Assembly (NCBI GenBank): GCA_964630265.1
Contig: CAZVRW010000006.1
Coordinates: 753-64,752, forward strand
DNA: 64,000 bases
Reading direction: 5' to 3'
Source: an uncultured Rhodospirillaceae bacterium
Lineage (GTDB): Bacteria; Pseudomonadota; Alphaproteobacteria; Rhodospirillales; Defluviicoccaceae
In this document: positions 19,565 to 54,310 of the stretch, in pieces
Layout: every line of letters begins with the position of its first letter
Numbering within the stretch: position 1 is the stretch's first letter
Position numbers and translations under genes: made by a program
The notes under the pieces: model-generated
What the model was told of the DNA's origin: nothing
The model's input: the letters and a program-made list of their open reading frames with translations, nothing else
The model's database searches: none

Positions 19565-19570
19565 GGACGC

Positions 19571-20688: not shown

Positions 20689-20692
<4 letters not shown>
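19571..20692 (+). CDS. ntrB: Nitrogen regulation sensor histidine kinase NtrB
   Basis: PAS-like N-terminus, H-box [21 protein letters not shown] boxes ([23 protein letters not shown]). GTG start. Confidence 0.9.
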
Positions 20693-22127
<1,435 letters not shown>

Positions 22128-22131
<4 letters not shown>

Positions 22132-24461: not shown

Positions 24462-25891
24462 TCATGTCGACCGTCAGACGCTCCAAGGTCGAGGACATTC
24501 TGATCGTCGACGACGAGGCGGACATCTGCATCCTGGTCGCCGGCGTCCTCGAGGACGAGGGCTTCGGCTCGCGCGATGCCTACGACAGCGACGCGGCGCT
24601 GCGGGCGATCGAGGAGCGGCGGCCGAGCTTGGTCCTGCTCGACATCTGGTTGCAGGGCAGCCGGCTGGATGGACTGCAGCTCCTGGAACAGCTCAAGCGC
24701 GAGCACCCGGCGCTGCCGATCGTCATCATGAGCGGCCACGGCACCATCGAGACCGCCGTCCAGGCGATCAAGCTCGGGGCCTACGACTTCATCGAAAAGC
24801 CGTTCAATTCCGATCGCCTGATCCTGGTCACCCAGCGCGCCATCGAGACGGCGCGGCTGCGCCGCGAGAACGAGGAGTTGCGCCAGCGCGGCAGCCAGCC
24901 GACCGAGATGATCGGCCGCTCGACGGTGATGAATCAGCTCCGCCAAAGCATCGAGCGGGTGGCGCCGACGAACAGCCGGGTCTTGATCACCGGGCCCGCC
25001 GGCTCGGGCAAGGAGGTGGTCGCGCGGATGATCCATGCGCGCTCGACCCGCGCCGAAGGCCCGTTCGTCGTCATGAGTTGCGCCTCCATGGCGCCGGAGC
25101 GGATCGAGATGGAGATCTTCGGGGTCGAGGGCGGCATCGATGGTCTCGAGGGACCGCGCAAGATCGGCACCTTCGAAGCGGCGCACAACGGCACCCTCTA
25201 TCTCGACGAGGTCGCCGACATGCCCTTGGAGAGTCAGGGCAAGATCGTTCGAGTGTTGCAGGAACAGGTGTTCCAGCGCGTCGGCGGCAGCACCCCGGTG
25301 AATGTCGACGTGCGCGTCATCGCGTCGACGACGCGCGACCTCACGGCCGAGATCGGCAACGGCCGCTTCCGCGAAGATCTGTTCTATCGCCTGAGCGTCG
25401 TGCCGTTGCGGGTGCCGGCGCTGCGCGAGCGGCGCGACGACATTCCGCTGCTGGCCGTCTATTTCATGGAACGCGCGGCGGAGGCGCAGGGACATCGGCC
25501 GCGGGCGCTGAACGACGATGCCATGGCGACGTTGCAGGCCCACGAATGGCCTGGCAACGTGCGCGAATTGCGCAATATCATCGAGCGGTTGTTGATCATG
25601 GCGCCGGGTGGCGTCGACGATCCGATCCGTGCCGACATGTTGCCACCGGAACTGGAGAGCAATTTCGCCGCCACCCGCAGTCCGGAACGGAACACCGACA
25701 TCATGAGCCTGCCGTTGCGCGACGCCCGTGAGATCTTTGAACGCGAATACCTGCTCGCGCAGGTCACGCGCTTCGGCGGCAACATTTCGCGCACCGCGGC
25801 CTTCGTCGGCATGGAGCGTTCGGCGCTGCATCGCAAGCTCAAGTCTCTCGGCATCCAGACCGACGAGAAGTTCCGCAACGTCGGGCCGTGA
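24458..25891 (+). CDS. ntrX: Sigma-54-dependent response regulator NtrX
   Basis: Receiver domain (ILIVDDE, LLDIWL), AAA+ domain (GPAGSGKE) and a C-terminal HTH (GGNISRTAAFVGMERSALHRKLK). Confidence 0.9.
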   Translation: MIMSTVRRSKVEDILIVDDEADICILVAGVLEDEGFGSRDAYDSDAALRAIEERRPSLVLLDIWLQGSRLDGLQLLEQLKREHPALPIVIMSGHGTIETAVQAIKLGAYDFIEKPFNSDRLILVTQRAIETARLRRENEELRQRGSQPTEMIGRSTVMNQLRQSIERVAPTNSRVLITGPAGSGKEVVARMIHARSTRAEGPFVVMSCASMAPERIEMEIFGVEGGIDGLEGPRKIGTFEAAHNGTLYLDEVADMPLESQGKIVRVLQEQVFQRVGGSTPVNVDVRVIASTTRDLTAEIGNGRFREDLFYRLSVVPLRVPALRERRDDIPLLAVYFMERAAEAQGHRPRALNDDAMATLQAHEWPGNVRELRNIIERLLIMAPGGVDDPIRADMLPPELESNFAATRSPERNTDIMSLPLRDAREIFEREYLLAQVTRFGGNISRTAAFVGMERSALHRKLKSLGIQTDEKFRNVGP

Positions 25892-25942
25892 CGCGCATCA
25901 CCCGGCGCCTGCCGCTCCCCGCCTTCTGACAATGGCCGAACC

Positions 25943-27319
25943 ATGAACATCGTGATCTGCGGGGCCGGCGAGGTCGGCTTCACCATCGCCCGCCACTTGG
26001 CCATGGAAAACAACAGCATCACCGTCGTCGACAAGTCGCCGGAACTGATCCGTCGCATCAACGACACGCTGGACGCCCAGGGCGTCGTCGGCCACGGCTC
26101 GCGCCCCGACGTGCTGCAACGGGCCGGCGCCGAGGACGCCGACATGCTGATCGCCGTCACCCAGTCGGACGAAGTGAACATGGTGGCGTGCCAGGTGGCC
26201 CATTCCCTGTTCGAGGTGCCGACGAAGATCGCTCGCATCCGGCATCAGAGCTATCTCGATGCGACCTGGGCCAACCTGTTCTCCCGCGACCACCTGCCGA
26301 TCGACGTCATCATCTCGCCCGAGGTCGAGGTCGCGCGCGCCATCATGCGGCGGCTGCGGGTTCCGGGCGCCTTCGAGATGATCCCGCTGGTCGACGACAA
26401 GGTCCGCCTGCTCGGCATTCGTTGCGAGGCGAATTGTCCGGCCATCAACACGCCGGTGGGCCGCCTGTCCCAGCTGTTTCCCAATCTCAACCTGGTCGTC
26501 GTCAGCCTCATCCATGGCGACCAACCGGTCCGGCTCCGGAGTGACGACGTCATCTCGGCCGGCGACGACGTCTACGTGGTCGTCGAGACCGAGCAGGTGA
26601 CGCAGGCGCTCGTGGCGTTCGGACATGAGGAGCCGCAAACCAAGCGGTTGCTGATCTGCGGTGGCGGCAATATCGCCCTGTTGCTGGCGCAGGGGATCGA
26701 GCGCGACTATCCCTGGATCAACGCCAAGATCATCGAGAGCAGCGTCGAGCGGGCCGCCCTGGTGGCGAGCATGCTCGGCCGGTCGGTGGTCCTGCACGGC
26801 GATGTCCTTGATCCGGAGATCCTGGACGAGGCCAGCGTCGAGGCGACCGACACCGTCGTTGCCATCACCGATGATGACGAAACCAACATCCTGTCGTCGA
26901 TGCTGGCCAAGCGCTACGGCGCCAAGCGGGCGATCACGCTGCTCAACAAGAGCATCTACGAGCCGCTCATCGCCACCCTCGGCATCGATGTCGTCGTCAG
27001 CCCGCGCAACATCACCGTCTCCTCGATCCTGCAGCACGTCCGACGCGGCCGCATCTACTCCGTGCATACGCTGCGCGAAGGCTTCGGCGAGTTGATCGAG
27101 GCGGAAGCGCTGGAAACGTCGAGCCTCGCCGGCGTTTCCCTCAAGGAAGCCCATCTGCCCGACGGCGTCATGGTCGGGGCCATCGTTCGCCATGGCCAAG
27201 TGATCACGCCCACGGGCAATACGGTGATCGAGGCCGGCGATCGCGTCGTGCTGTTCGCCGCACCGGATACGGTGCGCCGCGTCGAGAAGCTGTTCTCGGT
27301 ACGGCTCGAATACTTTTGA
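25943..27319 (+). CDS. trkA: Trk system potassium uptake protein TrkA
   Basis: Two RCK_N/RCK_C repeats with Rossmann motifs ICGAGEVG and ICGGGNIA, 458 aa. Confidence 0.93.
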   Translation: MNIVICGAGEVGFTIARHLAMENNSITVVDKSPELIRRINDTLDAQGVVGHGSRPDVLQRAGAEDADMLIAVTQSDEVNMVACQVAHSLFEVPTKIARIRHQSYLDATWANLFSRDHLPIDVIISPEVEVARAIMRRLRVPGAFEMIPLVDDKVRLLGIRCEANCPAINTPVGRLSQLFPNLNLVVVSLIHGDQPVRLRSDDVISAGDDVYVVVETEQVTQALVAFGHEEPQTKRLLICGGGNIALLLAQGIERDYPWINAKIIESSVERAALVASMLGRSVVLHGDVLDPEILDEASVEATDTVVAITDDDETNILSSMLAKRYGAKRAITLLNKSIYEPLIATLGIDVVVSPRNITVSSILQHVRRGRIYSVHTLREGFGELIEAEALETSSLAGVSLKEAHLPDGVMVGAIVRHGQVITPTGNTVIEAGDRVVLFAAPDTVRRVEKLFSVRLEYF

Positions 27320-27335
27320 TGGTCGGTCGGCTGCC

Positions 27336-28205
27336 ATGACCAGGGTGGTTTACGTCGACGGTCGCTACGTCCCGTACGCGGCGGCGCACGTTCACGTCGA
27401 AGACCGCGGCTACCAGTTCGCCGATGGCGTCTACGAGGTGATCGCCGTGCGCAACGACCGCTTCGTCGACGCCGACGCCCATCTCGACCGCCTGGATCGG
27501 TCCCTCGGCGAGCTGCGGATCGCCTGGCCGGTGGCCCGCGCGGCGCTGATGCCGATCCTGAAGGAGGTGGTGCGACGCAACCGGGCGGGCGGCTGCGGCG
27601 CCGTCTATCTGCAGGTGACCCGCGGCGTCGCCCCCCGGGCCCACGCCTTCCCGAAGGCTGCCAAGAGCGTGCTCGTGGCCATGGCCCGGCGGCTGCCGGT
27701 GCCGAGCCGGGAGGCGATGGCGCGCGGTGTCGCCGTCATCACCACCGACGATCTGCGCTGGAAGCGGGCCGACATCAAGTCGGTCTCCCTGCTACCCAAC
27801 GTCCTCGGCAAGCAGGCGGCGATCGAGGCCGGGGCGGACGAGGCTTGGCTGGTCGACGCCGACGGTCGCATTACCGAGGGGACGGCGTCCAACGCCTGGA
27901 TCGTGACGCCGACGGGGGAGGTGGTCACCCGCCACCTCGACCGGGCGATACTCGCCGGCATCACCCGGCAGAGCGTGCTCGACATTGCCGCCGAGCTCGG
28001 CCTCGCCGTCGTCGAGCGCCCGTTCACGGTCGCCGAGGCCGAGGGCGCCCGCGAGGCGTTCCTCACCAGCACCACGTCCTGGGTCAAGCCGGTCGTACGG
28101 ATCAACGGCGTGCCGGTGGGTGAGGGCGGCATCGGGCCGGTCAGCGGCCGGCTGCTCGAGCGTTATCTGCGCCACATGGGCGCCGGCCCGGATCGCGGCG
28201 CATGA
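27336..28205 (+). CDS. dat: D-amino-acid (class IV) aminotransferase
   Basis: VHVEDRGYQFADGVYEV, KSVSLLPNVL and EGTASNAWIV are class IV PLP aminotransferase signatures closest to D-alanine transaminases. Confidence 0.8.
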   Translation: MTRVVYVDGRYVPYAAAHVHVEDRGYQFADGVYEVIAVRNDRFVDADAHLDRLDRSLGELRIAWPVARAALMPILKEVVRRNRAGGCGAVYLQVTRGVAPRAHAFPKAAKSVLVAMARRLPVPSREAMARGVAVITTDDLRWKRADIKSVSLLPNVLGKQAAIEAGADEAWLVDADGRITEGTASNAWIVTPTGEVVTRHLDRAILAGITRQSVLDIAAELGLAVVERPFTVAEAEGAREAFLTSTTSWVKPVVRINGVPVGEGGIGPVSGRLLERYLRHMGAGPDRGA

Positions 28206-37017: not shown

Positions 37018-37181
37018 GGAGCAAAAAGTTCACCACATCCCGCAAGGCTTGTCTGTAAAATCCATCACAGTCCCACGGCGACCACCCCTCCCGCTTGATC
37101 GCGCGCCGGCCGGCGGTATCTGACCCGGTGGCCGGCGATGTCCACACAGGGTCATTCAGCGGCGCGACGGGTTGGCGGGAA

Positions 37182-37269
37182 ATCCTACAAAATCCTACTT
37201 TTTCCTACAAAAGCATACATTTCGACGAGCCGCCGAAAACAGAGTGCTTTTGTTTCAGTCAGTTGTAGG
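37182..37269. promoter_or_regulatory. Phased TCCTACA direct repeats plus one inverted copy in an AT-rich intergenic region
   Basis: ATCCTACAA at 37182, ATCCTAC at 37192, TTCCTACAA at 37202 (10-11 bp phasing), a degenerate GCATACA at 37213, and an inverted TTGTAGG at 37263-37269. It lies between the metG stop and the small ORF/S8 operon start. Confidence 0.4.
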
Positions 37270-37314
37270 TTTTTTCAATGGCTTAAGGTGGTCAAGACCC
37301 GCCTTTTTGCGGCA

Positions 37315-38889
37315 TCATTCGTGCACATTTGGCAACGGAGTCGCCATTTCGACGGCCAGTCGCGGGAACACCGGCGTCGGCTTCGGCAGCGGCGTGCCGG
37401 GTTCGAGCGCGTGGTCGGGGCCGAGGCAAGCGAAGCCGCGCCGGTCGGCGTCGACGGCAAGCTGATCGAGCATGCGGGCCGCGGTTTCCGGCGTCACCGG
37501 CTGCATCAGGATCGCCAGGTGGCGGATCGCCTCGCAGAGCACGTACAGCACCGTCGCCATGCGGTCCGGGTCGGCCTTGCGCAGGGCCCACGGGGCTTGG
37601 CGGTCGACATAGCCGTTGGCGGCGCGGACCACCGTCCACAACCGGTCGAGCACCTCGTGGAAGGCCTGGATGTCCATCGCCTCGCGCAGCGCCGGCAGCA
37701 GCGCATGGGCCGCGGCGAGCAGGCTCTCGTCCTCGGGGGTCAGCGGCCCCGGCGCCGGCACACATTCGGCGCAGTTGCGATTGACCATGGAGAGCACCCG
37801 TTGCGCCAAGTTGCCCAGTTCGTTGGCGAGTTCGCCGTTGACCCGGTTGACGACGCTCTCGTGGCTGAAGTCGCCATCGTTGCCGAACGGCACCTCGCGC
37901 AACATGACATAGCGCACCGGGTCGAGGCCGTAGGTCGCCACCAGGTGCAGCGGGTCGATGGCGTTGCCGAGGGATTTGGACATCTTCTGTCCCTCGACCG
38001 TCCACCAGCCGTGGGCGAAGACCCGCTTCGGCGGCTCCAGCCCTGCCGCCATCAGGAACGCCGGCCAGTAGACGGCGTGGAAGCGCAGGATGTCCTTGCC
38101 GACCATGTGAACGTCGGCCGGCCAATAGCGGGCATAGTCGCCGCCTTCGATCTCCGGATAGCCGACCGCGGTGATGTAGTTGGTGAGCGCGTCCAGCCAG
38201 ACGTACATGACGTGCTTCGGGTCGCCCGGCACCGGCACGCCCCAGTCGAAGGTGGTGCGCGAGACCGAGAGGTCCTGCAGCCCGCCCTTGACGAAGCTGA
38301 CGACCTCGTTCAGCCGGGTGCGCGGCAGCACGAAGTCCGGCCGCTCCGCATAGAGGGCCAGCAGTCGGTCCTGCCAGGCGGACAGGCGGAAGAAATAGCT
38401 GGGCTCCTCCACCCACTCCACCGGCGCGCCGGAGGGGCCGACCCGGGTGCCGTCGGCCAGCGTCGAAAGTTCGCTCTCCGTATAGAACGCCTCGTCGCGC
38501 ACCGCGTACCAGCCGGCATAGGCACCGGCGTAGATCTCGCCGGCATCGACCAGTGCCTGCCACAGGGCCTGGCAGGACCGCCGGTGCCGCGCTTCCGTGG
38601 TGCGGATGAAATCGTCGTTGGAGAAGTTCATGACCCGCGCCAGGTCGCGGAAGTTCTGCGAGACCCGGTCGGTGAAGTCGTGCGGCGTGATGCCGGCCGC
38701 GGCCGCCGCCTTGACCACCTTCTGGCCATGCTCGTCGGTCCCGGTCAGGAACTTGACGTCGAAGCCGTCCAGTCGCTTGAAGCGGGCGAGCACGTCGCAC
38801 GCGAGCGTCGTGTACATGTGGCCGATGTGCGGCACGTCGTTGACATAATAGATGGGAGTCGTGACGTAAAAGCTGTTCGCCGCGGCCAT
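37315..38889 (-). CDS. metG: Methionyl-tRNA synthetase (short form)
   Basis: YVTTPIYYVNDVPHIGH (HIGH motif) and KMSKSLGN (KMSKS motif), 524 aa. Confidence 0.95.
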   Translation of the reverse strand: MAAANSFYVTTPIYYVNDVPHIGHMYTTLACDVLARFKRLDGFDVKFLTGTDEHGQKVVKAAAAAGITPHDFTDRVSQNFRDLARVMNFSNDDFIRTTEARHRRSCQALWQALVDAGEIYAGAYAGWYAVRDEAFYTESELSTLADGTRVGPSGAPVEWVEEPSYFFRLSAWQDRLLALYAERPDFVLPRTRLNEVVSFVKGGLQDLSVSRTTFDWGVPVPGDPKHVMYVWLDALTNYITAVGYPEIEGGDYARYWPADVHMVGKDILRFHAVYWPAFLMAAGLEPPKRVFAHGWWTVEGQKMSKSLGNAIDPLHLVATYGLDPVRYVMLREVPFGNDGDFSHESVVNRVNGELANELGNLAQRVLSMVNRNCAECVPAPGPLTPEDESLLAAAHALLPALREAMDIQAFHEVLDRLWTVVRAANGYVDRQAPWALRKADPDRMATVLYVLCEAIRHLAILMQPVTPETAARMLDQLAVDADRRGFACLGPDHALEPGTPLPKPTPVFPRLAVEMATPLPNVHE

Positions 38890-38931
38890 GGGACTGATCC
38901 TTCGCTCGCTTTTGCTACCGCCACGCCGGGG

Positions 38932-40029
38932 TCAGGCGCGGACTGCGCTTTGCAGGTGCGTGAACACGGTCAGGGTCACCTGTTTGCGATCGAGGGAAGC
39001 GCTGTCGACGCGGGCGAGAAGAGCGCCGACCTTGTCCCACACCTCCAGCCATCGATCAAGGCCACCGGCGCCGGCGAGCCGACCGATCACGGCCGCCGGC
39101 CCGGGGTCATCGGCTCCACAGGCGCCGGTGCCGGCGGCGCGGATGATGCTCGCGAGCAGGCCGCGCAGCATCTCCATGGCCACCGCAAACGTCTCGCCGG
39201 CGTCCGCCTTGCCGATCCGCTCGCCGAAGGCAAGCACGGCCGCGACATCGAGCCGCGGCAGGTCGGCGATCAGCCGCAGCAGCTCGTCATGCAGGCCGCC
39301 GCCCCCCTGCCCCGCCAGCGTCAGGGCGCGGCCGATGCTGCCGGCCGCCAGGTGCGCCAGCGCCGCCGCGTCGGCCGGGGCGAGGTCCGGCGCGTAGCGG
39401 CCGAGCAGCTCCACCACGGTCGCGTCGGCGAGCGGCCCGAGCGTCAGCCGCCGGCAGCGGGAGCGGATGGTCGGCAGCAGCCGGCCGAAATTGTGGGCGA
39501 CGAGCAGCAGCAGCGTCCGCGCCGGCGGCTCCTCCAGCACCTTGAGCAGGGCGTTGGCGGCGTTGATGTTCATCTCGTCCGCGGCATCGACGATTACCAC
39601 CCGCCAGCCGCCCTCGGCCGCCGTGTGCGCCACCAGGCCCTGCACGGCACGCACATCGTCGACGACGATCTCGCTGCGCCGCCGACTGGCCTTCTCGTCC
39701 CAGCGCCGTTCCACCGTGACCAGGTCGAGATGGCCACCGGCCGCAACGCGCTGGAACACCGGCGCGTCCGCAGCGACGAACAGGCAGCCGGGCGGCGGCG
39801 GCGCGCCGAACAGCGACGGTGCCGGCGCCGCCGCATCGCCGTGCGCCAGGAGAAAACGGCCCAAGCGGAACGCCAGCGTCGCCTTGCCGATGCCGCGCGG
39901 CCCGGTGATCAGCCAGGCATGCGGCAGCCGGCCGCTCAGCCATGCCGCCAGCAGCGTCTGCTCCGCCGCCGCGTGACCGAGCAGGTCCGGATTGGCGCGC
40001 GGCTCCGGCCAAGGGGCAGCGCTCATCAC
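38932..40029 (-). CDS. holB: DNA polymerase III delta-prime subunit
   Basis: HAWLITGPRGIGKATLAFR, VVIVDAADEMN, NALLKVLEEPP and SRC motif TIRSRCRRL. Confidence 0.9.
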   Translation of the reverse strand: MMSAAPWPEPRANPDLLGHAAAEQTLLAAWLSGRLPHAWLITGPRGIGKATLAFRLGRFLLAHGDAAAPAPSLFGAPPPPGCLFVAADAPVFQRVAAGGHLDLVTVERRWDEKASRRRSEIVVDDVRAVQGLVAHTAAEGGWRVVIVDAADEMNINAANALLKVLEEPPARTLLLLVAHNFGRLLPTIRSRCRRLTLGPLADATVVELLGRYAPDLAPADAAALAHLAAGSIGRALTLAGQGGGGLHDELLRLIADLPRLDVAAVLAFGERIGKADAGETFAVAMEMLRGLLASIIRAAGTGACGADDPGPAAVIGRLAGAGGLDRWLEVWDKVGALLARVDSASLDRKQVTLTVFTHLQSAVRA

Positions 40030-40685
40030 GCCGTCTCCCGGAGCATCGCGAACTCGGGGAAGCGCTCGGCGACGATCCGCCGGATGTCCGCTGCCACCGC
40101 GTCTTCCGGGCGAGCGGCGTCGACGACGACGCAGCGCTCGGGCTCACGCCGGGCGATCTCCAGGAATCCGGCACGCACCCGGGCGTGGAACGGCCGGTCC
40201 ATGCGTTCGTAGCGATCGCCGTCCGGGGTTCGCGCCCGGGCCCGGTCGAGGCCGGCATCGACGTCGAGGTCGAGCAGGATCGTCAGGTCGGGCTTGACGC
40301 CGCGCAGCACCCATGTGTGCAGGGCGGCGACCACCTCATGCCCGAGCCCTTGAGCGTATCCCTGGTAGGCGGTGGTCGAGTCGGCGAAGCGGTCGCACAC
40401 CACGCAGTCGCCGCGGGCGAGCGCCGGCAGAACGGCGTGATCCAGGTGGTCGCGCCGCGCCGCAGAATGCAGCAGCGCCTCGGTCATCGGACTCCAGGTG
40501 GCGTCCGCGGGGTCGACGAGCAGCGCGCGGATCGCCTCGGCGCCGCGGGAGCCACCGGGTTCGCGGGTGACCAGCACCGGCCGGCCCGCACGCTCCAACG
40601 TCAACGCCAGCCGGCGGACTTGGGTGGACTTGCCGGCCCCCTCGCCGCCCTCGACGGTGAGAAAACGGCCGCGTGGTCCGGTCAG
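40026..40685 (-). CDS. tmk: Thymidylate kinase; the conserved N-terminus requires a non-canonical (CTG) start
   Basis: REPGG and the DRF motif lie inside the track ORF (from TTG 40604). The P-loop GRFLTVEGGEGAGKST is encoded in frame upstream of it, with no ATG/GTG/TTG before the upstream stop. A CTG at 40683-40685 overlaps the dacC stop. Confidence 0.8.
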   Translation of the reverse strand: MTGPRGRFLTVEGGEGAGKSTQVRRLALTLERAGRPVLVTREPGGSRGAEAIRALLVDPADATWSPMTEALLHSAARRDHLDHAVLPALARGDCVVCDRFADSTTAYQGYAQGLGHEVVAALHTWVLRGVKPDLTILLDLDVDAGLDRARARTPDGDRYERMDRPFHARVRAGFLEIARREPERCVVVDAARPEDAVAADIRRIVAERFPEFAMLRETA

Positions 40686-45775: not shown

Positions 45776-48247
45776 TCAGGCGGACGCCGCGGGCATTTCC
45801 GCGCCGGTGGTGTCGCGCGGCAGGAAGAGACGCATGGTGGTCCCGTGCCCGAGGGCGCTTTCGACGGTGATCTGGCCTCCCGATTGCGTCACGAACCCAT
45901 ACACCATGCTGAGGCCGAGCCCACTGCCTTCGCCAAACGACTTGGTGGTGAAGAACGGCTCGAACACCCGTTCGACCACCTCCGGGGGCATGCCGCAGCC
46001 GGTGTCGGCGATGGCGATGAGCACCGCATCTCCGAGGTTCGCTCCTCCCCCGCCGCCGAGCGAGCCGCCGGGCACGTTCTGCGTGGTGATCGTCAGCACG
46101 CCGCCCTCCGGCATCGAGTCGCGGGCGTTGACGACCAGGTTGACGAGGGCGTTTTCCAACTGACCGCGATCGATCATCGCCCGCCACAGATCGTCGGCGA
46201 ACACCTCGCGGAAGGCGATGCGATCGCCCAAGGTCCGGCGCAGCAGTTTGGTCATCCGGGCAATGACGTGGTTCACGTCCGTTGCCTTCGGCTGCAGGTT
46301 TTGGCGCCGGGCGAACGCCAGCAGCCGGCTGGTCAACTGCGCCCCCCGCTCCGCCGACCAGATGGCGTCCGTCACCAGTTCCTTGCGCGCATCGTCGGCC
46401 GGCAGACTCTCGTCGAGAAGCTGCAAGTTACCCATAATGATGGCGAGCAAGTTATTGAAATCGTGCGCGACGCCGCCGGTCAGCTCGCCGATCGCCTTCA
46501 TCTTCGATACCTGGCGCAGCCGCTCCTCGGTGGCCTTGCGTTCCGTGATGTCCTCCTTCACCGCGACGAAGTGGGTGATCCGGCCACGAACGTCCCGCAC
46601 CGGTGCAATGGCGGCCAACTCCCAGAACAGCTGCCCGCTCTTCGAGCGGTTGTGAAACTCGCCGCGCCAGACTTCGCCCCGCGATATGGTCTTCCACAGT
46701 TTTTCGTATTCGGCGCCGGTGGTGTGACCCGATTTCAGCACCCGCGGATTCTTGCCGACGACTTCGGCATAGGTGTAGCCGGTCGCCTGGGTGAACTTCG
46801 GATTGACGTATTCGATCCTGCCTTCGATATCGGTGATGACTACCGACGCCGGGCTTTGCTCGATCGCCTGGAACAGCTTGCGCAGGTCGCCCTGGGTGCG
46901 CCGATGCTCCGAAATGTCGCGAATGAACAGCAGGAACTGCTGCTGGCCGGCCACCTCCAGGGGCATCACCTGCATCTCGGCGAACGCGACGGTGCCGGTC
47001 GGCCGGATCACCTCGATCTCGGCCGGCGCATTCGAGGCGACGGGAAAGCCGAACGGTTGGCCGACCAGGTCTTCGGCCGATTTGCCGAAGAGACTCTGGG
47101 CGGCGGCATTGACATCGACGATGCGGTGGCTGGCATCGAGAATGACGGTGGCGTCCGACTGCCGCTCGAACACCGACCGCCAGCGCGCCTCGCTGTCGCG
47201 GCGTCCGTGCTCGCTGCGTTTCTCCTCGGTCACATCCTGCAGCAGGACCACGATCTCGCCATTGGGCAGGCGGTAGACATAGCTCTCCCGCCAGCCTGAG
47301 ATGCGATCATCCTGATAGAACATGGCCGGCTGCTGCTCCGGCGTCCCGGTCTTCCAGACCCGCCGGACCATGTCGAGCAGGCCGGTCCAGCCGGCTTCCG
47401 GCATGGCCTCGAGAAAGCTCTTGCCGATGAGTTCCTGGCGCGGCCGTTCCTCGAGCCGTTCGGCGCTGCGGTTGACATCGCGAACCACGAAATCCCCGCC
47501 GGAGTCGACGGCCGCCAGAACCACGGCGCCGCCTTTCATGTTGTTAAAGAGCTCGTGGAAGCGGACCTCGCCATCGCGCAGCCTGCGGATGATCGGCTCG
47601 CTCACCCCCATCACCACGAACACGCCGAGCGCGATGACGAACGCGGCGAACGCCAGCACGGTGAGGCCGGCCTTGACGTACGGGGCGCGAAACGCCGAGA
47701 GGTCGGTCATGGCGACGACCGCGAGATCGAGACCGTCGACCGGGGCAAAGGCGCCCAGCACCCGCACGCCCCGTGGATCAAGCCCCTCGAAGGTGCCAGC
47801 TTCCCCGGCAAAGACCCGCTGCGCGATGGGCCAGGCCGCCCACGCGTCATCGCCGGCGGGCGCGCCCTCGGTCGAGGCACCGCGGTGCAGGACGACGGCG
47901 ATGCCGGCCTCGGTATTCGACAGAACGACGTAACGTTCGCCCCGGTTGAAACCGTGATCGGGGATCAGCATCGCATCGATCGGCGCCGCCGCCGGTTGCG
48001 AGGGTTCGCCCGCCGCGTGGCGAACGGCGTGGAGCCCTTCCGCGAGCGCCACGTGACCGCGAATGACCTGCAGCAGCCGCTGTTCCTCTACCGCGACGCC
48101 GGTGCGGAAGAGGACACCGAGGGCGGTGCCGCCGACGGCGAGTGCAACGGCGGTCATGATGCCACAGAGGACGAGCAGGCGGCGACCGCCGGCAAGCCGT
48201 GGCTCGCTCAATCCCGATCTCCCGGATCCACGGGCATCGGCGCGCAA
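45776..48247 (-). CDS. Membrane sensor histidine kinase with a periplasmic loop, multiple PAS/PAC domains, HisKA and HATPase domains, and no receiver
   Basis: Two TM segments flank a loop of about 150 aa. There are several PAS-like repeats (for example ITDIEGRIEYVNPKF...TGY). H-box GGVAHDFNNLLAIIMGNLQLL; N/G boxes NLVVNARDSMP, DTGCGMP, GSGLGLSMV. Confidence 0.88.
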   Translation of the reverse strand: MRADARGSGRSGLSEPRLAGGRRLLVLCGIMTAVALAVGGTALGVLFRTGVAVEEQRLLQVIRGHVALAEGLHAVRHAAGEPSQPAAAPIDAMLIPDHGFNRGERYVVLSNTEAGIAVVLHRGASTEGAPAGDDAWAAWPIAQRVFAGEAGTFEGLDPRGVRVLGAFAPVDGLDLAVVAMTDLSAFRAPYVKAGLTVLAFAAFVIALGVFVVMGVSEPIIRRLRDGEVRFHELFNNMKGGAVVLAAVDSGGDFVVRDVNRSAERLEERPRQELIGKSFLEAMPEAGWTGLLDMVRRVWKTGTPEQQPAMFYQDDRISGWRESYVYRLPNGEIVVLLQDVTEEKRSEHGRRDSEARWRSVFERQSDATVILDASHRIVDVNAAAQSLFGKSAEDLVGQPFGFPVASNAPAEIEVIRPTGTVAFAEMQVMPLEVAGQQQFLLFIRDISEHRRTQGDLRKLFQAIEQSPASVVITDIEGRIEYVNPKFTQATGYTYAEVVGKNPRVLKSGHTTGAEYEKLWKTISRGEVWRGEFHNRSKSGQLFWELAAIAPVRDVRGRITHFVAVKEDITERKATEERLRQVSKMKAIGELTGGVAHDFNNLLAIIMGNLQLLDESLPADDARKELVTDAIWSAERGAQLTSRLLAFARRQNLQPKATDVNHVIARMTKLLRRTLGDRIAFREVFADDLWRAMIDRGQLENALVNLVVNARDSMPEGGVLTITTQNVPGGSLGGGGGANLGDAVLIAIADTGCGMPPEVVERVFEPFFTTKSFGEGSGLGLSMVYGFVTQSGGQITVESALGHGTTMRLFLPRDTTGAEMPAASA

Positions 48248-48621
48248 CCGTGCGCATCGCTCAGGGCTTGGCGCAGCCGCGGCAGGCTCACCGGCTTGCT
48301 CAGGGTCTTGACCGAGCGCAGCCCCTTGTACTCAGCGAGCAACCGTGCGTTGGTGGCATATTGCGGGCTGTAACCGGTGATGATGATGATGTGCGATCGG
48401 CACTGCTCGCCGACGAGCCAAAGGATGAGTTCGTTGCCGTCTATCTCCGGCATGACCATGTCCAGAACGACCGTATCGGGGGGCTCACGGCGATAAGCCT
48501 CCATGAAGTCCCGCCCCTGGGTTGTGATCTCGACATCGTAGCCGAGCGGCTCGGCGACTTTTCGCACGAGAGCCGCGAACTTCGGTTCGTCATCAACGAT
48601 CAAAAGTCGCTTATTTGCCAT
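48208..48621 (-). CDS. Single-domain CheY-like response regulator
   Basis: RLLIVDDEP (acidic pair), VVLDMVMPEIDG (phospho-acceptor Asp), IIIITG (Thr) and LSKP (Lys). No output domain. The 3' end overlaps the kinase start by 40 nt. Confidence 0.88.
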   Translation of the reverse strand: MANKRLLIVDDEPKFAALVRKVAEPLGYDVEITTQGRDFMEAYRREPPDTVVLDMVMPEIDGNELILWLVGEQCRSHIIIITGYSPQYATNARLLAEYKGLRSVKTLSKPVSLPRLRQALSDAHGCAPMPVDPGDRD

Positions 48622-48794
48622 CCATGTTCGCTCCGACGTCGCGTTTCCATCTAAGGTAAAGTTTCCAACCGAGGCAAAGTGATGAGTGCACAAGCCGTGA
48701 CGCCAGCCGAAGGTCAAGCTTCATCCGCACCGGCGACTGTGGTACCACGCGGCCGCACCGGATTCGCCCCCAATTTCAATTGGGCCCCGTCAAG

Positions 48795-49685
48795 ATGGGC
48801 ACGCCAATGACCGATTCTCCACTGCGGCTGCTCGTCGTCAACGTCGCTGCCGATTCCTTGGCCGATTTGCCGCGCCGATTGGCGATCGTCGCCGATGACT
48901 TGGTCGTGCAACCGGACGTCCGCGCCGTTGGCGCCCCGCTTCCCGAGCAGGTGGCCGATTACGATCTCGTGGTCATCGATGGACAGGGCGATGCGGGCAT
49001 GGTGATCCGGCTGCTCGCCGAGGTTCGGCGCCTCGGCCCGACGATGCCAATCGCTCTGGCCGCCGGCACCGCGGCCGCCGGGACCGGCGAAGCGGCCGAC
49101 ATCACCGCCAGCGCGATCGGCGACGGGCTGTTCCTGATCGAATCCTGTATCACCGACGCGGGCTTCAGGTCGGCGATCTCCGGCGTCTTCGCGACGATTC
49201 ACGACGCCCGCGAACGCTGGCGCGGCGATCTCGATGCGGCGCACCGGGAACTTGCCGATTTGACGACGGCCTGCAGCCCCGCCCCCCTCGCAGCATCGTC
49301 CCGCATGCTCGGCGGACGTCCGCTCCGCGAATCGGCGCCGGAGCGGTTCAAACGGATGAAGAGCGATTACCGGGGATTGCTCGACGAAGCTTTGGCACTA
49401 CGCATTCGCGGCATCGACCAAGCCGACCGCGAGGAGTTGCAAGCGTTGGCCGACCGTCTCGGCACCTTGAACGCCGGGCCCCGCGACGTCATCGACCTGC
49501 ACCGACTGACGATCGCCGATATCGTCAGCGAGCAGCCGCCGCAGAAAGCAAGGGCTTACGTCGACGAGGGCCGTCTTGTGTTGATCCAATTGATGGGGTA
49601 CTTGGCGTCGTTTTATCGATCGCTGACGTGGGGCGGCCGTCGTGCCCCACAACCGAGGAGTCGGCCGTGGGCAAGTTCATCTTGA
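48795..49685 (+). CDS. KaiA-like protein: receiver-like (degenerate) N-terminal domain + KaiA-C/RsbU-N-type helical C-terminal domain
   Basis: The N-terminus has a receiver beta-alpha pattern ([25 protein letters not shown]) but lacks the DD pair, Thr and Lys. The C-terminus KSDYRGLL...[10 protein letters not shown]...[20 protein letters not shown] aligns with my recollection of Synechococcus KaiA (SYREIVL...TKVVEIHMEL...LDYRLTLIDVIAHLCEMYRRS). The 3' end overlaps the kaiB start by 19 nt. Start is ATG 48795 or 48807. Confidence 0.65.
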
Positions 49686-49981
49686 AGCTCTACGTCGCGG
49701 GGCAGACGTCGCGGACGCGGCAGGCGATTCGCAATATCCACGAGATCTGCGAGCGCAGTCTCGGTGGGATGTACGATCTCGTCGTGATTGATGTTCTCGA
49801 ACGTCCGCAGTTGGCAGAAAATGAACGCATCCTGGCAACACCAACCCTGGTCAAGGAGTTGCCACCGCCGTTGCGCAGAGTGGTGGGGGATCTTTCGGAT
49901 CGGGAACGCGTTCTCATCGGCCTGGACCTCTCAGTCCATGATGAGGGTCCCGGCGCCTTGGACGACGCTCCAGAGGACTGA
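49667..49981 (+). CDS. kaiB: Circadian clock protein KaiB
   Basis: [61 protein letters not shown] is almost colinear with cyanobacterial KaiB. The GTG at 49667 lies 6 nt after GAGGAG. Confidence 0.93.
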
Positions 49982-49987
49982 GCAAAG

Positions 49988-51511
49988 ATGAAACAAGTTC
50001 ACCCGACCCTGGAAAAGATCCCGACGCATATCCCCGGTTTCGACTTCATCTCGGACGGCGGCCTGCCGAAGGGGCGAACGATGCTGCTGGCCGGCAGCTC
50101 GGGCAGCGGCAAGACCATTTTCGCTTGCCAGTTCCTGATCGAGGGAATCCGCAAGAGCGGCGACAACGCCGTGTTCGTCACCTTCGAGGAGCACCCCGAA
50201 GACGTTCGCACCAACGTCCGCTCCTTCGGCTGGGATATCGACGCGCTGGAAAGCGCCGGCCAATGGAAATTCGTCGATGCCGCGCCCGACCCCAGCATCG
50301 AGGTGTCGATCACCGGAGACTATGATTTCGGCGCCCTGCTCGCCCGTATCGAGCACGCGGTCCGCGCGGTCGACGCCAAGCGTGTCGTGCTCGACTCCCT
50401 CGGCGCGATCTTCGGCCACTTCCTCGACGGCGTCCGCGTCCGCCACGAACTGTTCCGCATCGCCACGGCGTTGCGGCAGATGGGCGTGACGGCACTGCTG
50501 ACGGCGGAGCGGACGGCGGAATATGGCGAGATCGCCCGCCATGGGATCGAGGAGTTCGTCGCCGACGGCGTGCTGATCGCCCGCAACGTCCTCGAGGAGG
50601 AGAAGCGGCGGCGGACCATCGAGATCCTCAAGATCCGGGGCACCAGCCATCGGAAGGGGGAGTACGCCTTCACCATCATTCCCGGCGAAGGCATCATCGT
50701 CGTCCCGATCTCGGCGATCGAGTTGCGTCAGCGGTCCGGTGACATTCGCGTCACCTCCGGCAATGGCGAACTCGATCAGATGTGCGGCGGCGGCCTGTTC
50801 CGCGATTCGGTCATCCTGGTTTCGGGGGCCACCGGCACCGGCAAGACGCTGATGGTGACGCACTTCATCGACGGCGGCGTTTCCGCCGGCGAACGCTGTC
50901 TGCTGTTCGCCTTCGAGGAGAGCCGCGAACAGCTCGGCCGTAACGCCATCGGCTGGGGCATCGACTTCGAGAGCATGGAACAGGGGGGCAAGCTCCGGAT
51001 CGTTTGTGAATATCCGGAGTCCGCGAGCCTCGAAGATCACCTCGTCCGCTTCAAGGAGCACATCGACGACTTCAAGCCGGACCGTCTCGCCATCGACAGC
51101 CTGTCGGCGCTGGAGCGGATTTCAACGATCCGCAGTTTCCGGGAGTTCGTGCTCGGCGTCACCTCGTTCATCAAGCACAAGGAGCTCACCGGGCTGTTCA
51201 CCTCGACGACACCGACGCTGACCGGCGGCACGTCGGTCACCGAGGCGCACATCTCGTCGATCACCGATACCATCTTGCTGCTGCGCTATGTCGAGCTGTT
51301 CGGCGAGATGCATCGCGGCATCACCGTGCTGAAAATGCGCGGCTCGGGCCACGACAAAGATATCCGCGAGCTGGTGATCGACGGTCAGGGCATGCACATC
51401 GGCGCCCCGTTCCGCAATGTCGCCGGCATTCTCGCCGGCAACCCGATGCAGATCGCGGCCTCCGAGGTGGATCGTCTGGACAAGATGTTTCCGTCCGATC
51501 CGGGGATCTGA
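49988..51511 (+). CDS. kaiC: Circadian clock protein KaiC (two RecA-like domains)
   Basis: IPTHIPGFDFISDGGLP. CI Walker A GSSGSGKT and FVTFEEHPED. CII Walker A GATGTGKT and FAFEESREQL. Phosphosite region EAHISSITDTILLLRYVE. 507 aa. Confidence 0.95.
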   Translation: MKQVHPTLEKIPTHIPGFDFISDGGLPKGRTMLLAGSSGSGKTIFACQFLIEGIRKSGDNAVFVTFEEHPEDVRTNVRSFGWDIDALESAGQWKFVDAAPDPSIEVSITGDYDFGALLARIEHAVRAVDAKRVVLDSLGAIFGHFLDGVRVRHELFRIATALRQMGVTALLTAERTAEYGEIARHGIEEFVADGVLIARNVLEEEKRRRTIEILKIRGTSHRKGEYAFTIIPGEGIIVVPISAIELRQRSGDIRVTSGNGELDQMCGGGLFRDSVILVSGATGTGKTLMVTHFIDGGVSAGERCLLFAFEESREQLGRNAIGWGIDFESMEQGGKLRIVCEYPESASLEDHLVRFKEHIDDFKPDRLAIDSLSALERISTIRSFREFVLGVTSFIKHKELTGLFTSTTPTLTGGTSVTEAHISSITDTILLLRYVELFGEMHRGITVLKMRGSGHDKDIRELVIDGQGMHIGAPFRNVAGILAGNPMQIAASEVDRLDKMFPSDPGI

Positions 51512-51571
51512 CCGGGATTCGACTTGGTCGCCTCGCCGACGGCGGTGGGGCGGCGGTCCGGCCAGGGTGCC

Positions 51572-51649
51572 TGGGGCGAGAGATGGGATTCGAACCCACG
51601 ACCTCCTGGACCACAACCAGGCGCTCTAACCGACTGAGCTACTCCCGCC
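51572..51649 (-). tRNA. tRNA-His (anticodon GUG) with encoded G-1 and CCA
   Basis: Reverse complement folds as G-1, acceptor GCGGGAG/CTCTCGC (one G-U pair), anticodon stem CCTGG/CCAGG with loop TTGTGGT, T-arm GTGGG TTCGAAT CCCAT, discriminator C, CCA. Confidence 0.9.
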
Positions 51650-51745
51650 ATCGCGGACGGACGACATACCCCTCGCCCGCCGCCTCGTCAAGCGCGCCGC
51701 CGCCCGCGCCTGGGCCCGCACGCGTGGCGTCAACTCGGCCGTCGC

Positions 51746-54310
51746 TCAGGCCCGAGGGCGGCGCACGCGCGATTGGCCGACAAGAGTCAGCCCGGCGAAG
51801 GCCGCCAGCAGTACCGACAGCGATGTCGGTGCAGCCACGGCCACCGGTACTTGGACGAGGAATTGCGCGACGATGGGATCGTGGTCGCTCAGCAGGGTCT
51901 CGAACAGCCGTCCCGTGTTCATGTGCACGAAGTCGACGCCGACGAACCGGTCGAACACGCTCTGGCTGACCAGGATGTGATCCAGCGCCTGGGAGTTGCC
52001 CTCGAACTCGAAGGTGAAGATGTCCGTCGGGTCCGGGTTGCTGAACGCCAGGTTGATCAATACGTTGCTGCCATCATCGGCGCCGGTGAGAATGCTGAGC
52101 GGCTCGAAGAACTGGAACTCGTTGAGGTCACCGAGCACGATGATGTTGGCGAGCGGATCGAAGGCCAGCAGCGAGTCGACTGCGGCATTGACCGCGGCCG
52201 CCTGGGCGTTGCGCTCGTCGACGCTGCCGTTGGCCGGCGGCTGGGTGCTGCCGAACAGGGGATCGCTTCCGCTCTTCGATGAAAAGTGGTTGTTGATGAT
52301 GGTGAAGCTCTCCCCGGCGAAGCTGAATTCCATGACCAGGGGAAGGCGGGTGTCGAAGAACGGGCTCGCCGGGTCGCTCTGCAGGCCGGCGCTGGGGATG
52401 TCGGTGATCGTCCCATCTTGATCAATGGTGGCGACGCTGTCCGGGGCGACGGGCACGCGATCGGCGTTGTACAGGAACGCCGTGCGGATGTTGGCGCCGG
52501 GAGCGCCGCCGCTGGTGTTGTCGCCGATGAAGGGGTTGTCCACGAAGCTGTAGCTCGGACCGCCCGCGTCGGCGATGGCATCCACCAGTGTCTGCAGGGT
52601 CAATGCGGCGCTGACCGTGCCATCGTTGGCCGCTCCCGAATTGTCCTGGATCTCCTGCAGGGCGAGGACGTCGGGGGCGCCCATGTTGGTGACGATCTGC
52701 CGGGCGAGGCCGGCGAAGCGGCCGCTGCCGATGTCGTCATTGCCGTCCTGATCATTGGGATCGAGGTTGAAGACGTTGTAGGTGGCGACGGTGAAGTTCA
52801 TGGCGTCGCCGGCCAACGTCGTCACCTCGTCGGGCCGGTCGAGCTCGGTGGTCACGACCGGCGCCAGCGGCCGGATTCGGTAGTCGTTGAAGCTGAACTG
52901 GACGACCCCGGTGATGTCGCCGCCGTCGCTGCCCACCAAGTCGCCCATCTCGGGGGGCATCTCGGGACGGGTATCGGAGTCGACGGTGCCGACGATCAGG
53001 ATCCGCTCGGGATTCAGGTCGGCCTGCAGCGGATTGTCATTGAAACTGTTGACGGTGTCGGCGCTGATGGTGATGCCGCCGCGGGAATTGAGGCTGGTCA
53101 GGTTGCCGTCTTCGTCGTCGCGGCTGACGGCATAGAACTCGCCACGGCTCGGCCGGGTATCCTCGTCACTGACGGCCTGGGCGCCCACCAGCGTCACCAG
53201 CATGCCCTCGAGGCTCTCGTAGAAATCGCGGCCATCGGTGGCCGGGTCGAAGACGACCGATCCCAGGTCGTCGACGATGGTGTTGGGCTGCGTCCGGTGC
53301 GGATTGGTGGACGGTGCCGCCAGGTCGGTGCTGATGGTCACCGGCACGATCTCGTTGCCGGAGTTGAGGACGGTGACGACCGGCGTGTTGGCGAGTTGGG
53401 TCTCGTTGAAGAACTCAGCGACGGTTCCCTCCACGTCCACCGCATCGCCGACCGCGACGCCCGGCGCGCCGCCGGTGAAGACGAAGATGCCATCCGACGT
53501 GCGATCGTCGCCGTCGCCGACGGGGTCCTGCAAATAGAAACCGTTACTGGCGACCGCGGTGACGAGGCCGCTGGTGACGACCCGGTTTCCCTCCGCGGGC
53601 GAGACGTGCCCCGGCCCCTGGATCTCCATGATCGACAGGACTTGTGACGACGGCGGATTGGGATCGACGGCGTTCGTCGTCCCCGGCGTGTTGAAGGTCG
53701 TGCCCGCCGCCGGCGTTCCGGCGACGATGCCGGCGAGATCGAAGTCGTTGCGGGTCCAGTCCCCGTCGCTGTCGGTGTCGACGCCGTCCGGCAGCCGCGA
53801 AGCGCCGCCGACGGTGAACGAATTGCCATCGAAGCCCGGCGCCAGGACCGGCGCACCGAAGTTGGAATCGCCGGCGCCGCCATCCCAGATGCCGATCGAG
53901 TCGACGACGCGCGACCAGGGGGTGACGTCGAACACGCCCGTATTACTCGTGTCCAGATCCTGGCCGAGGGTGCCGCTGAAGTCCTCGACGAGGAACAGGC
54001 TCATGGTCCCGTTCTCGATCAGGTTGTTGGAAAAATTCGTCACCCAGAAGCCGTGGACATCGGTCGTGCCCACTTGAAAGACGCTGTCGATGATGCCAAC
54101 CGAGGAGTCGCCCTCGATCTGCAAAATGCTCAGAGCGGAATAGTCGAAATCGGCCAATCCGAAAATTTCGACGTACTCGTTGACGTCTGTGCCAGCGTGA
54201 TTGGCCACAAATTCGTTGATTGTCTGTGCCCGCCCGTCGTCACACATCAAAACGACCAGAGCAGTGCTTGCCAGCAAGGTGCGGATTCGCGTCCCACCGG
54301 GCATATTCAT
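51746..54310 (-). CDS. ExeM/NucH-type extracellular nuclease (lamin-tail domain + endonuclease/exonuclease/phosphatase domain) with a C-terminal sorting-signal-like tail
   Basis: Signal peptide. LTD-like INEFVANHAGTDVNEYVEIFG. EEP motifs VATYNVFNL, VLALQEIQDN, IINNHFSSK, VLGDLNEF, SDHDP. Tail VPVAVAAPTSLSVLLAAFAGLTLVGQSRVRRPRA. Confidence 0.8.
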   Translation of the reverse strand: MNMPGGTRIRTLLASTALVVLMCDDGRAQTINEFVANHAGTDVNEYVEIFGLADFDYSALSILQIEGDSSVGIIDSVFQVGTTDVHGFWVTNFSNNLIENGTMSLFLVEDFSGTLGQDLDTSNTGVFDVTPWSRVVDSIGIWDGGAGDSNFGAPVLAPGFDGNSFTVGGASRLPDGVDTDSDGDWTRNDFDLAGIVAGTPAAGTTFNTPGTTNAVDPNPPSSQVLSIMEIQGPGHVSPAEGNRVVTSGLVTAVASNGFYLQDPVGDGDDRTSDGIFVFTGGAPGVAVGDAVDVEGTVAEFFNETQLANTPVVTVLNSGNEIVPVTISTDLAAPSTNPHRTQPNTIVDDLGSVVFDPATDGRDFYESLEGMLVTLVGAQAVSDEDTRPSRGEFYAVSRDDEDGNLTSLNSRGGITISADTVNSFNDNPLQADLNPERILIVGTVDSDTRPEMPPEMGDLVGSDGGDITGVVQFSFNDYRIRPLAPVVTTELDRPDEVTTLAGDAMNFTVATYNVFNLDPNDQDGNDDIGSGRFAGLARQIVTNMGAPDVLALQEIQDNSGAANDGTVSAALTLQTLVDAIADAGGPSYSFVDNPFIGDNTSGGAPGANIRTAFLYNADRVPVAPDSVATIDQDGTITDIPSAGLQSDPASPFFDTRLPLVMEFSFAGESFTIINNHFSSKSGSDPLFGSTQPPANGSVDERNAQAAAVNAAVDSLLAFDPLANIIVLGDLNEFQFFEPLSILTGADDGSNVLINLAFSNPDPTDIFTFEFEGNSQALDHILVSQSVFDRFVGVDFVHMNTGRLFETLLSDHDPIVAQFLVQVPVAVAAPTSLSVLLAAFAGLTLVGQSRVRRPRA

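Follow-up and report, generated by a model that had tools for sequence, protein, structure and literature searches.

The 64,000-nucleotide (nt) stretch of an uncultured Rhodospirillaceae genome that was analysed here (contig CAZVRW010000006.1; hereafter, the window) probably carries a chromosomal KaiA3-type kaiABC system, in which a KaiA-like activator and the antagonist KaiB would act on a KaiC of the KaiC1/KaiC3 lineage. An earlier reading made from the letters of the DNA (the sequence-only reading) had proposed a KaiA-dependent three-component system distinct from the KaiA-free timers. This proposal remains the best reading of the locus, because the protein encoded upstream of kaiB can be assigned to the KaiA3 family and the KaiC to the KaiC1/KaiC3 lineage without the C-terminal extension.

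Organization of the kai genes

The kaiA3-like gene (48795..49685, + strand) is an open reading frame (ORF) of 296 amino acids (aa) with an ATG start at 48795, a stop codon at 49683-49685, and an alternative TTG start at 48780; in its product, a degenerate receiver is joined through a long helical linker to a KaiA-like C-terminal domain of four helices. The end of this ORF overlaps the first 19 nt of kaiB (49667..49981, + strand; 104 aa), whose GTG start at 49667 is preceded, six nt ahead, by GAGGAG at 49655-49660. The double-domain kaiC (49988..51511, + strand; 507 aa) starts with ATG at 49988, leaving a gap of 6 nt behind the stop codon of kaiB. The three genes are a single tightly coupled unit, and their packing is exactly as the sequence-only reading had described it.

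KaiB and KaiC

The kaiB product matched Pfam KaiB with an E-value of 2.1e-28 (98.3 bits; cut-off, 27) and exceeded the cut-off of NCBIfam PRK09301 (119.6 bits; cut-off, 110), whereas it stayed below that of TIGR02654 (115.4 against 145.3 bits). Its best match among PDB sequences was a cyanobacterial KaiB (2qke, 111 bits), and the Rhodobacter KaiB 8fwj scored 91 bits. The ratio of nonsynonymous to synonymous substitution rates (dN/dS) was 0.032 against L001, a Rhodospirillaceae metagenome-assembled genome (MAG) that is the closest genome relative of the window. The KaiB is of the clock type, and the sequence-only reading had already called it a bona fide KaiB.

The double-domain KaiC named in the same reading was likewise recovered in every detail: both Walker A motifs (GSSGSGKT and GATGTGKT), the EE pairs (FEEH and FEES), and the HISSITDT segment were read in the sequence, and the protein scored 689.8 bits with PRK09302 (cut-off, 408) and 616.3 bits with TIGR02655 (cut-off, 546). 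Its dN/dS against L001 was 0.041. Among PDB sequences, 711 bits were obtained with 8zn5, the reconstructed ancestor KaiC-beta at the node joining groups I-III (PMC12081879), 565-592 bits with cyanobacterial KaiC1, and 320 bits with the Rhodobacter KaiC2 (8dba). The A-loop and tail were colinear with those of KaiC1 in the alignment, and the 507-aa protein ends after a short tail, the KaiC2-type C-terminal extension being absent. Sequence comparison thus assigns this KaiC, with both predicted ATPase sites, to the KaiC1/KaiC3 lineage (group III of Mukaiyama et al. 2025). An hourglass KaiC of the KaiC2 type is ruled out by the score (320 against 565-711 bits) and by the length of 507 aa.

In a neighbour-joining tree calculated with neither bootstrap values nor an outgroup, the alphaproteobacterial KaiCs were monophyletic and formed a deep branch apart from the cyanobacterial KaiC3 clade. 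On the question of whether the KaiC was of the KaiC1/KaiC3 or the Rhodobacter type, the bit scores and the missing C-terminal extension point to the former. A recent transfer from cyanobacteria was also considered and is ruled out by the separate deep alphaproteobacterial clade, subject to the same limits of the tree.

The peptide of the KaiC tail is ...GILAGNPMQIAASEVDRLDKMFPSDPGI, and the motif GILAGNP...SE[VI][DE]RL..[LM]F is common to the KaiA3-linked KaiCs of many phyla; such a conserved tail would fit a docking peptide. In the phosphosite segment HISSITDT (51245-51268), the equivalents of T426 and S431 are kept and T432 is replaced with Ser. This Ser-Ser phosphosite was found in all seven alphaproteobacterial KaiCs recovered (the window plus those of the loci L001, L002, L004, L028, L055, L062, and L065 from which a KaiC was obtained), whereas 51 KaiCs of other phyla have Ser-Thr.

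The KaiA3-type C-terminal domain

Relatives of the upstream ORF were sought among 5.8 billion proteins. The family that was found consists of proteins of approximately 300 aa, mostly with a Pfam-recognised N-terminal receiver, and all members have a conserved C-terminal domain of approximately 130 aa with the motif EEGRLxVLELMGYLxSFYR. Using the sequences of Sll0485 (KaiA3 of Synechocystis) and its orthologs from Supplementary Data S1 of Köbler et al. 2024 (PMC11372060), BLASTP gave 33% identity over 167 aa with Sll0485 (E=9e-28) and 42% identity over 113 aa with the Rhodospirillum rubrum ortholog (E=7e-21). The motifs common to the window ORF and Sll0485 include ASPRD/AGPRD..IH. These matches show that the C-terminal domain (aa 146-296; 49230..49685, + strand), which bears the conserved motif EGRLxxLxLMGYLxSFYR, belongs to the KaiA3 family.

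The C-terminal domain shared 97% identity with that of L001, whereas the N-terminal domain shared 61%, and the dN/dS of the former was 0.037, showing that purifying selection on the KaiA3-type domain matches that on KaiB and KaiC in strength. No interruption of the reading frame occurs in the window, in L001, or in two relatives from metagenomes, and L001 retains both the kaiB overlap and the kaiB Shine-Dalgarno sequence. The last 19 or so aa of the protein (49629-49685) are identical in these four sequences even though they lie outside the folded domain (predicted local distance difference test (pLDDT) score below 50). This tail is probably conserved because its coding sequence overlaps the ribosome-binding site and start codon of kaiB.

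The relation of this domain to canonical KaiA was examined at the levels of sequence and fold. The window protein had no match above threshold with Pfam KaiA (PF07688), and a profile of the full-length family searched against PDB sequences was swamped by receiver domains. With hhalign, the C-domain family aligned with two verified KaiA sequences at an E-value of 0.011 (probability, 3.8%); the register was as expected (VIDLH with VVEIH, and YLASFYR with HLCEMYRR), without being significant. A Pfam scan of 108 relatives gave sub-threshold matches to RsbU_N in nine and to KaiA in five (best KaiA E-value, 0.0014). Besides N-terminal sensor domains (receiver, PAS, GAF, and related families) and some weak matches scattered over other families, RsbU_N and KaiA were the only recurrent families listed, and the chance expectation for matches to two named families was approximately 0.01. 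Because the 108 relatives share kinship, the matches are supportive rather than decisive.

The full-length AlphaFold2 (AF2) model (pLDDT, 78) had the full-length KaiA of Synechococcus elongatus as its top PDB matches (1r8j, E-value of 4.7e-5; 4g86, 1.1e-4). The model of the C-terminal domain (pLDDT, 80) consisted of four helices, and in Foldseek the KaiA C-domains occupied ranks 1-4 and nine of the 14 top matches. The top PDB entries were 1r5q, 1q6a, 5jwr, 5n8y, and 1v2z, with template modelling (TM) scores of 0.51-0.69 by target; against 1r5q, the TM score was 0.68 by target, with a root-mean-square deviation of 3.3 A over 94 columns. RsbU_N was considered as a nearer structural relative and was rejected, as it fell outside the top 50 fold matches. 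Taken together, we regard the C-terminal domain as KaiA-like in its predicted fold and as belonging to the KaiA3 family, and we do not assign it to Pfam KaiA; the modelled fold is stronger evidence of KaiA-likeness than the sequence, which is weak evidence. Accordingly, the KaiA-like domain that the sequence-only reading placed at the end of the upstream ORF is borne out as regards the fold and KaiA3 homology, but not as a match reaching the threshold of a curated sequence family. The profile and fold searches that it had suggested divided in the same way, with no Pfam KaiA or RsbU_N match for the product and KaiA as the top Foldseek matches.

The N-terminal pseudo-receiver

The N-terminal domain (aa 1-145; 48795..49229, + strand) had no Pfam Response_reg match at E<=1, whereas its AF2 model showed a receiver-like beta-alpha fold, in which no helix was present at the place of alpha4 (aa 91-104, low pLDDT). 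The KaiA pseudo-receiver likewise has no alpha4 helix (Köbler et al. 2024, PMC11372060). This fold, together with the match to Sll0485, bears out a chimera of a receiver-like and a KaiA-like domain, for which the sequence-only reading had named KaiA3 as precedent.

The active site was compared at the positions of CheY D12, D13, D57, T87, and K109, for which an intact receiver has D-D-D-T-K. The window protein has N-V-D-A-E, keeping the equivalent of Asp57 with the other four positions changed; L001 has N-I-D-T-D, the R. rubrum ortholog H-G-G-L-A, and Sll0485 E-D-D-S-L. Most receiver-bearing members from Chloroflexota and several other phyla have E-D/N-D-T/S-K. The remaining Rhodospirillales loci are also degenerate. 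The window protein therefore does not have the phosphorylatable Asp within an intact active site that is taken as the receiver criterion of the KaiA3 family. Having lost its acidic pocket as well as the Thr and Lys typical of a receiver, the N-terminal domain is probably not phosphorylated. Its dN/dS against L001 was 0.53, and the domain is under relaxed selection. Degenerate receivers were observed in several cyanobacterial loci of the family as well, and have been reported for Microcystis and Pleurocapsa members (PMC11372060); the loss is thus recurrent rather than unique.

Regulator and PAS kinase genes beside the kai cluster

A single-domain response regulator gene (48208..48621, - strand; Pfam Response_reg, 6.8e-18) is transcribed divergently from the kai cluster. 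The pocket of its product was read as an intact D-D-D-T-K, and its dN/dS against L001 was 0.020. An ortholog with 66-98% identity occupied the same position and orientation in 7/7 Rhodospirillales loci (the seven L-numbered loci listed above for the phosphosite), whereas none was present at the kai cluster in any other fetched locus.

Downstream of the regulator gene lies that of a membrane sensor histidine kinase with three PAS domains, HisKA, and HATPase_c (45776..48247, - strand; likely start at 48211), as identified with Pfam and NCBIfam. The kinase was matched with 48-91% identity in six of the seven Rhodospirillales loci; in the seventh, L062, the DNA stops 763 bases beyond the regulator gene. 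In L081, a locus identical in DNA to the window, the kinase gene call overlaps the regulator stop by 4 nt. The third PAS domain (aa 459-581) matched NifL PAS1 (TIGR02938, 9.8e-39) and has GKNPRVLKSG at what we take to be the position of the photoactive cysteine motif of light-oxygen-voltage (LOV) domains. Since this segment replaces the LOV cysteine motif in a domain matching NifL PAS1, the third PAS domain may be a flavin or redox sensor. As a separate observation, the regulator-kinase pair occurs together with a degenerate receiver in the KaiA3-like protein of Rhodospirillales.

Distribution of the KaiA3-type domain

In a scan with one genome per species, relatives of the kaiA3-like gene were found in 280 genomes, from which 80 loci were fetched. 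The gene-neighbourhood survey suggested by the sequence-only reading revealed kaiB directly downstream in 78 of the 80 loci. In most of the 80 loci kaiC followed, and 62 complete KaiCs were recovered. The Microcystis loci were without kaiC, an exception that Köbler et al. 2024 (PMC11372060) had also noted in M. aeruginosa NIES-843.

An exhaustive hidden Markov model search of 1.84 billion cluster representatives (50% identity) gave 1830 clusters at E<=1e-3, a number that fell to 1556 at the stricter E<=1e-10, with the domain located C-terminally in every match listed. The N-terminal modules of 108 relatives were receivers (63/108), PAS domains (approximately 27/108), and also GAF domains. The KaiA3-type domain family far exceeds the listing of 2024, which comprised 15 cyanobacterial species and five genera.

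Two further features were observed among the fetched loci. A second copy of kaiB and/or kaiC adjoins the KaiA3-like gene in L077 (5001-9253), L031, L037, and L079; L077 is binned as a MAG of Helarchaeota (an Asgard archaeon), which may reflect a binning artefact or a transfer. In the non-alphaproteobacterial loci L037, L046, and L071, a histidine kinase gene lies on the same strand directly 3' of kaiC.

Intergenic region and genomic setting

The intergenic region between the divergent response-regulator and kaiA3-like genes (48622..48794) presumably contains the promoters for both units and is mostly conserved in L001. An 18-bp tandem duplication at 48643-48678 (GTTTCCATCTAAGGTAAA / GTTTCCAACCGAGGCAAA) is present as a single copy in L001. 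Upstream of the kaiA3-like gene, a perfect 10-bp palindrome, GTGGTACCAC, lies at 48738-48747. It is common to the window, L001, and L081, with two stray matches elsewhere, and was not found in the other Rhodospirillales loci. As only the closest relatives have it, we do not put it forward as a conserved operator. A scan of 48100-51800, which is uninformative in such GC-rich DNA, gave a single weak promoter-like site on the - strand (48841-48814, just within the kaiA3-like gene) and no terminator-like site.

Beyond kaiC, the tRNA-His gene (anticodon GTG; 51572-51648, - strand) converges on the kaiC end 60 nt past its stop, with no terminator-like hairpin between the two. The wider setting includes a dusB-ntrB-ntrC-ntrY-ntrX run (18524-25891, + strand), a membrane pyrophosphatase gene (7394-9679, + strand), and PCMT, DUF218, and SLT_2 genes. 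The dusB-ntr order is a classical alphaproteobacterial one. The run and the pyrophosphatase gene confirm the alphaproteobacterial core-genome setting given in the sequence-only reading, in agreement with the affiliation of L001. Four long ORFs of 479-1024 aa (410-2788, - strand; 15713-18478, + strand; 25898-27337, - strand; 37138-40212, + strand) had no NCBIfam match at E<=1e-20, and some of them may be shadow ORFs in GC-rich DNA.

Relation to earlier reports

The sequence-only reading had regarded Synechocystis KaiA3 as the sole precedent and a non-cyanobacterial system as new. This claim of novelty fails because the KaiA3 orthologs and the kaiA3-kaiB3-kaiC3 synteny have already been listed in Rhodospirillum and Bradyrhizobium by Köbler et al. 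2024 (PMC11372060), who also raised the idea of an oscillator in R. rubrum and suggested that the system may explain R. rubrum rhythms. Géron et al. 2024 (PMC10931921) identified Rru_A3293 as the R. rubrum gene, and Mukaiyama et al. 2025 (PMC12081879) grouped the R. rubrum KaiC with KaiC3s in group III. A hydrogenase rhythm has been reported in R. rubrum. In the literature consulted, no pairing of KaiA3 with Rhodospirillum was found besides these three studies. The canonical kaiABC outside cyanobacteria, which Dvornyk and Mei 2021 attributed to probable lateral transfer, is a separate matter. The three-gene architecture is therefore catalogued in this lineage, whereas it is not characterised there, so that only the former part of what the sequence-only reading had named as refuting its proposal applies.

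The window locus adds a further member to the catalogued alphaproteobacterial kaiA3BC group. Several details were not found stated in the literature consulted, namely the degenerate receiver under relaxed selection, the Ser-Ser KaiCs, the deep KaiC clade, and the regulator/PAS-kinase pair. The value of the window lies in this extra member and in the clade-specific details, the idea of an oscillator being already in the literature. The locus bears on whether a free-running KaiA-dependent Kai oscillator exists in any non-cyanobacterial prokaryote. The sole assayed proteobacterial KaiC of the group, that of R. rubrum, was given the KaiA of S. elongatus and not its own KaiA3-like protein. The locus and its relatives provide a compact and well-defined protein set for testing the cognate trio, with the regulator and PAS kinase as candidate signalling partners.

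Proposed mechanism and alternative explanations

In the proposed mechanism, a dimer of the helical domain would bind the A-loop and C-terminal tail of KaiC, by homology to KaiA3, and would shift KaiC from autodephosphorylation to autophosphorylation. KaiB would then bind phosphorylated KaiC and oppose the activator, giving a phosphorylation cycle. The N-terminal domain, as a probably unphosphorylated pseudo-receiver comparable to that of canonical KaiA, may serve as a structural or ligand/partner-binding module, and the response regulator and PAS kinase may connect the Kai proteins with the physiology of the cell as a lineage-specific input or output. In Synechocystis, KaiA3 raises the phosphorylation of KaiC3 and KaiB3 favours its dephosphorylation, and the three proteins together oscillate in vitro (PMC11372060, PMC12081879); the cognate KaiA3-KaiB3-KaiC3 of Cyanothece also oscillates (PMC12081879).

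Several results weigh against a KaiA-dependent system in the window. The upstream ORF had no Pfam or NCBIfam match of its own, and a profile of the C-terminal domain alone retrieved no KaiA from PDB sequences, giving chance-level matches only. The hhalign comparison of the C-domain family with a 114-sequence KaiA alignment was not significant (local P=0.048; probability, 1.1%), and hence we do not claim sequence homology to canonical KaiA. The Foldseek E-values for the isolated C-terminal domain were just 0.14-0.6, and small helical bundles match easily. The degenerate, fast-evolving N-terminal domain could change the dynamics, and the Thr-to-Ser replacement at the second phosphosite could likewise alter them. 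Furthermore, the R. rubrum KaiC was arrhythmic in vitro, though only the KaiA of S. elongatus was tried (PMC12081879).

As far as the sequence goes, the cycle may either sustain itself or run as a damped timer resembling an hourglass. A distinctly less probable explanation than the KaiA3-type system proposed above, although one deserving serious weight, keeps the same parts and assumes an environmentally driven hourglass or damped timer that needs a daily reset, with the KaiA3-like protein tuning KaiC phosphorylation by a kinase/regulator signal or by pseudo-receiver sensing. Such a timer would agree with the hourglass-like behaviour of the proteobacterial Kai timers studied so far (PMC11372060), with the Ser-Ser phosphosite altered in the alphaproteobacterial clade, and with the conserved sensor kinase that adjoins the cluster and has a PAS domain resembling that of NifL. 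The arrhythmic R. rubrum KaiC, a group III protein like KaiC3, would also agree with it in the protein sets tried. However, S. elongatus KaiA has no effect on KaiC3 either (PMC11372060), and the assays with R. rubrum KaiC therefore reveal little on the cognate trio. The cognate trios of Synechocystis and Cyanothece do oscillate, and the window KaiC is without the KaiC2 extension that frees the Rhodobacter timer from KaiA.

The most far-reaching proposal is that Rhodospirillales have a lineage-specific clock module of five genes, namely those of the pseudo-receiver KaiA3-like activator, KaiB, Ser-Ser KaiC, the conserved divergent single-domain regulator, and the flavin-PAS-like membrane kinase. 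This module would be a full circadian oscillator that depends on KaiA, sustains itself, and has a two-component input or output of its own, and it would have evolved as a deep lineage distinct from the KaiC3 clade of cyanobacteria and not through a recent cyanobacterial transfer. We advance this proposal tentatively, as somewhat more doubtful even than the environmentally driven timer.

The upstream protein might instead be a Kai-associated adaptor or output factor that relays the clock state by way of its helical domain, bound either to KaiB or to KaiB in complex with KaiC, while KaiC phosphorylation is intrinsic. The statistically weak sequence similarity to canonical KaiA and the fusion of the C-terminal domain to varied sensors (receiver, PAS, and GAF), which is frequent in signalling adaptors, are in line with this role, as is the poor conservation of KaiA-KaiC interaction residues in Synechocystis KaiA3 and KaiC3 (Köbler et al., PMC11372060). 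Nevertheless, the homologous Synechocystis KaiA3 promotes KaiC3 phosphorylation, KaiA3-linked KaiCs of different phyla have a conserved tail, as would be needed in a docking peptide, and the A-B-C order with translational coupling mirrors kaiABC, so that an adaptor is quite improbable. Lastly, it is highly improbable that the upstream gene is a decaying remnant of a receiver-KaiA3 fusion beside a working kaiBC-only system: despite the degenerate, Pfam-unrecognised, and fast-changing N-terminal domain, the frame is intact in all four sequences compared, the C-terminal domain is under strong constraint, the kaiB overlap and Shine-Dalgarno sequence are kept in L001, and the dN/dS of even the N-terminal domain is still <1.

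Comparison with known Kai systems

The KaiA3-type system proposed for the window resembles the KaiA3-KaiB3-KaiC3 system of Synechocystis sp. PCC 6803, with which it shares the homologous C-terminal domain, an N-terminal domain of the receiver type, and a gene located directly 5' of kaiB. The KaiCs are of the same lineage, the window KaiC being 66-68% identical to cyanobacterial KaiA3-linked KaiCs, and both end in a short tail that lacks the extension of KaiC2. In contrast, the receiver of the window protein is Pfam-undetected and has N-V-D-A-E in place of the E-D-D-S-L of Sll0485. The Synechocystis kaiC3 is located elsewhere, whereas the window trio is contiguous with an overlap between the kaiA3-like gene and kaiB. 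The window also differs in its Ser-Ser rather than Ser-Thr phosphosite, in its dedicated divergent regulator and PAS kinase, and in its alphaproteobacterial host, with no KaiAB1C1 system seen in the 64 kb.

Rru_A3293-kaiB-kaiC of R. rubrum has the same three-gene order, a Rhodospirillaceae host, a related C-terminal domain (42% identical over 113 aa), and a similarly degenerate N-terminal receiver. However, the N-terminal domains of the two proteins are not alignable, and the Asp57 equivalent kept in the window is lost in R. rubrum.

The KaiABC system of S. elongatus shares with the window the order A-B-C, an activator composed of a pseudo-receiver and a helical bundle (1r8j was the best fold match), the colinear A-loop and tail of KaiC, and a KaiB of the cyanobacterial type. 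It differs in that the window protein is without a significant profile match to KaiA PF07688, and in that the window KaiC belongs to group III rather than group I and has an SS rather than an ST phosphosite. The window yielded no homolog of SasA, CikA, or RpaA, and the kai genes are linked instead to a single-domain regulator and an unrelated, membrane-bound PAS kinase.

The KaiBC (KaiC2) timers of Rhodobacter sphaeroides and Rhodopseudomonas palustris are similar to the window system in their alphaproteobacterial hosts and in the kaiB-kaiC operon. The Rhodobacter KaiC2 has a C-terminal extension of approximately 50 aa, forming an inter-hexamer coiled coil, that is missing from the window KaiC. 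The window KaiC scored 320 bits with the Rhodobacter KaiC and 565-711 bits with KaiC1 and the ancestral KaiC-beta. Furthermore, unlike in these timers, kaiBC of the window is preceded by a KaiA-like gene.

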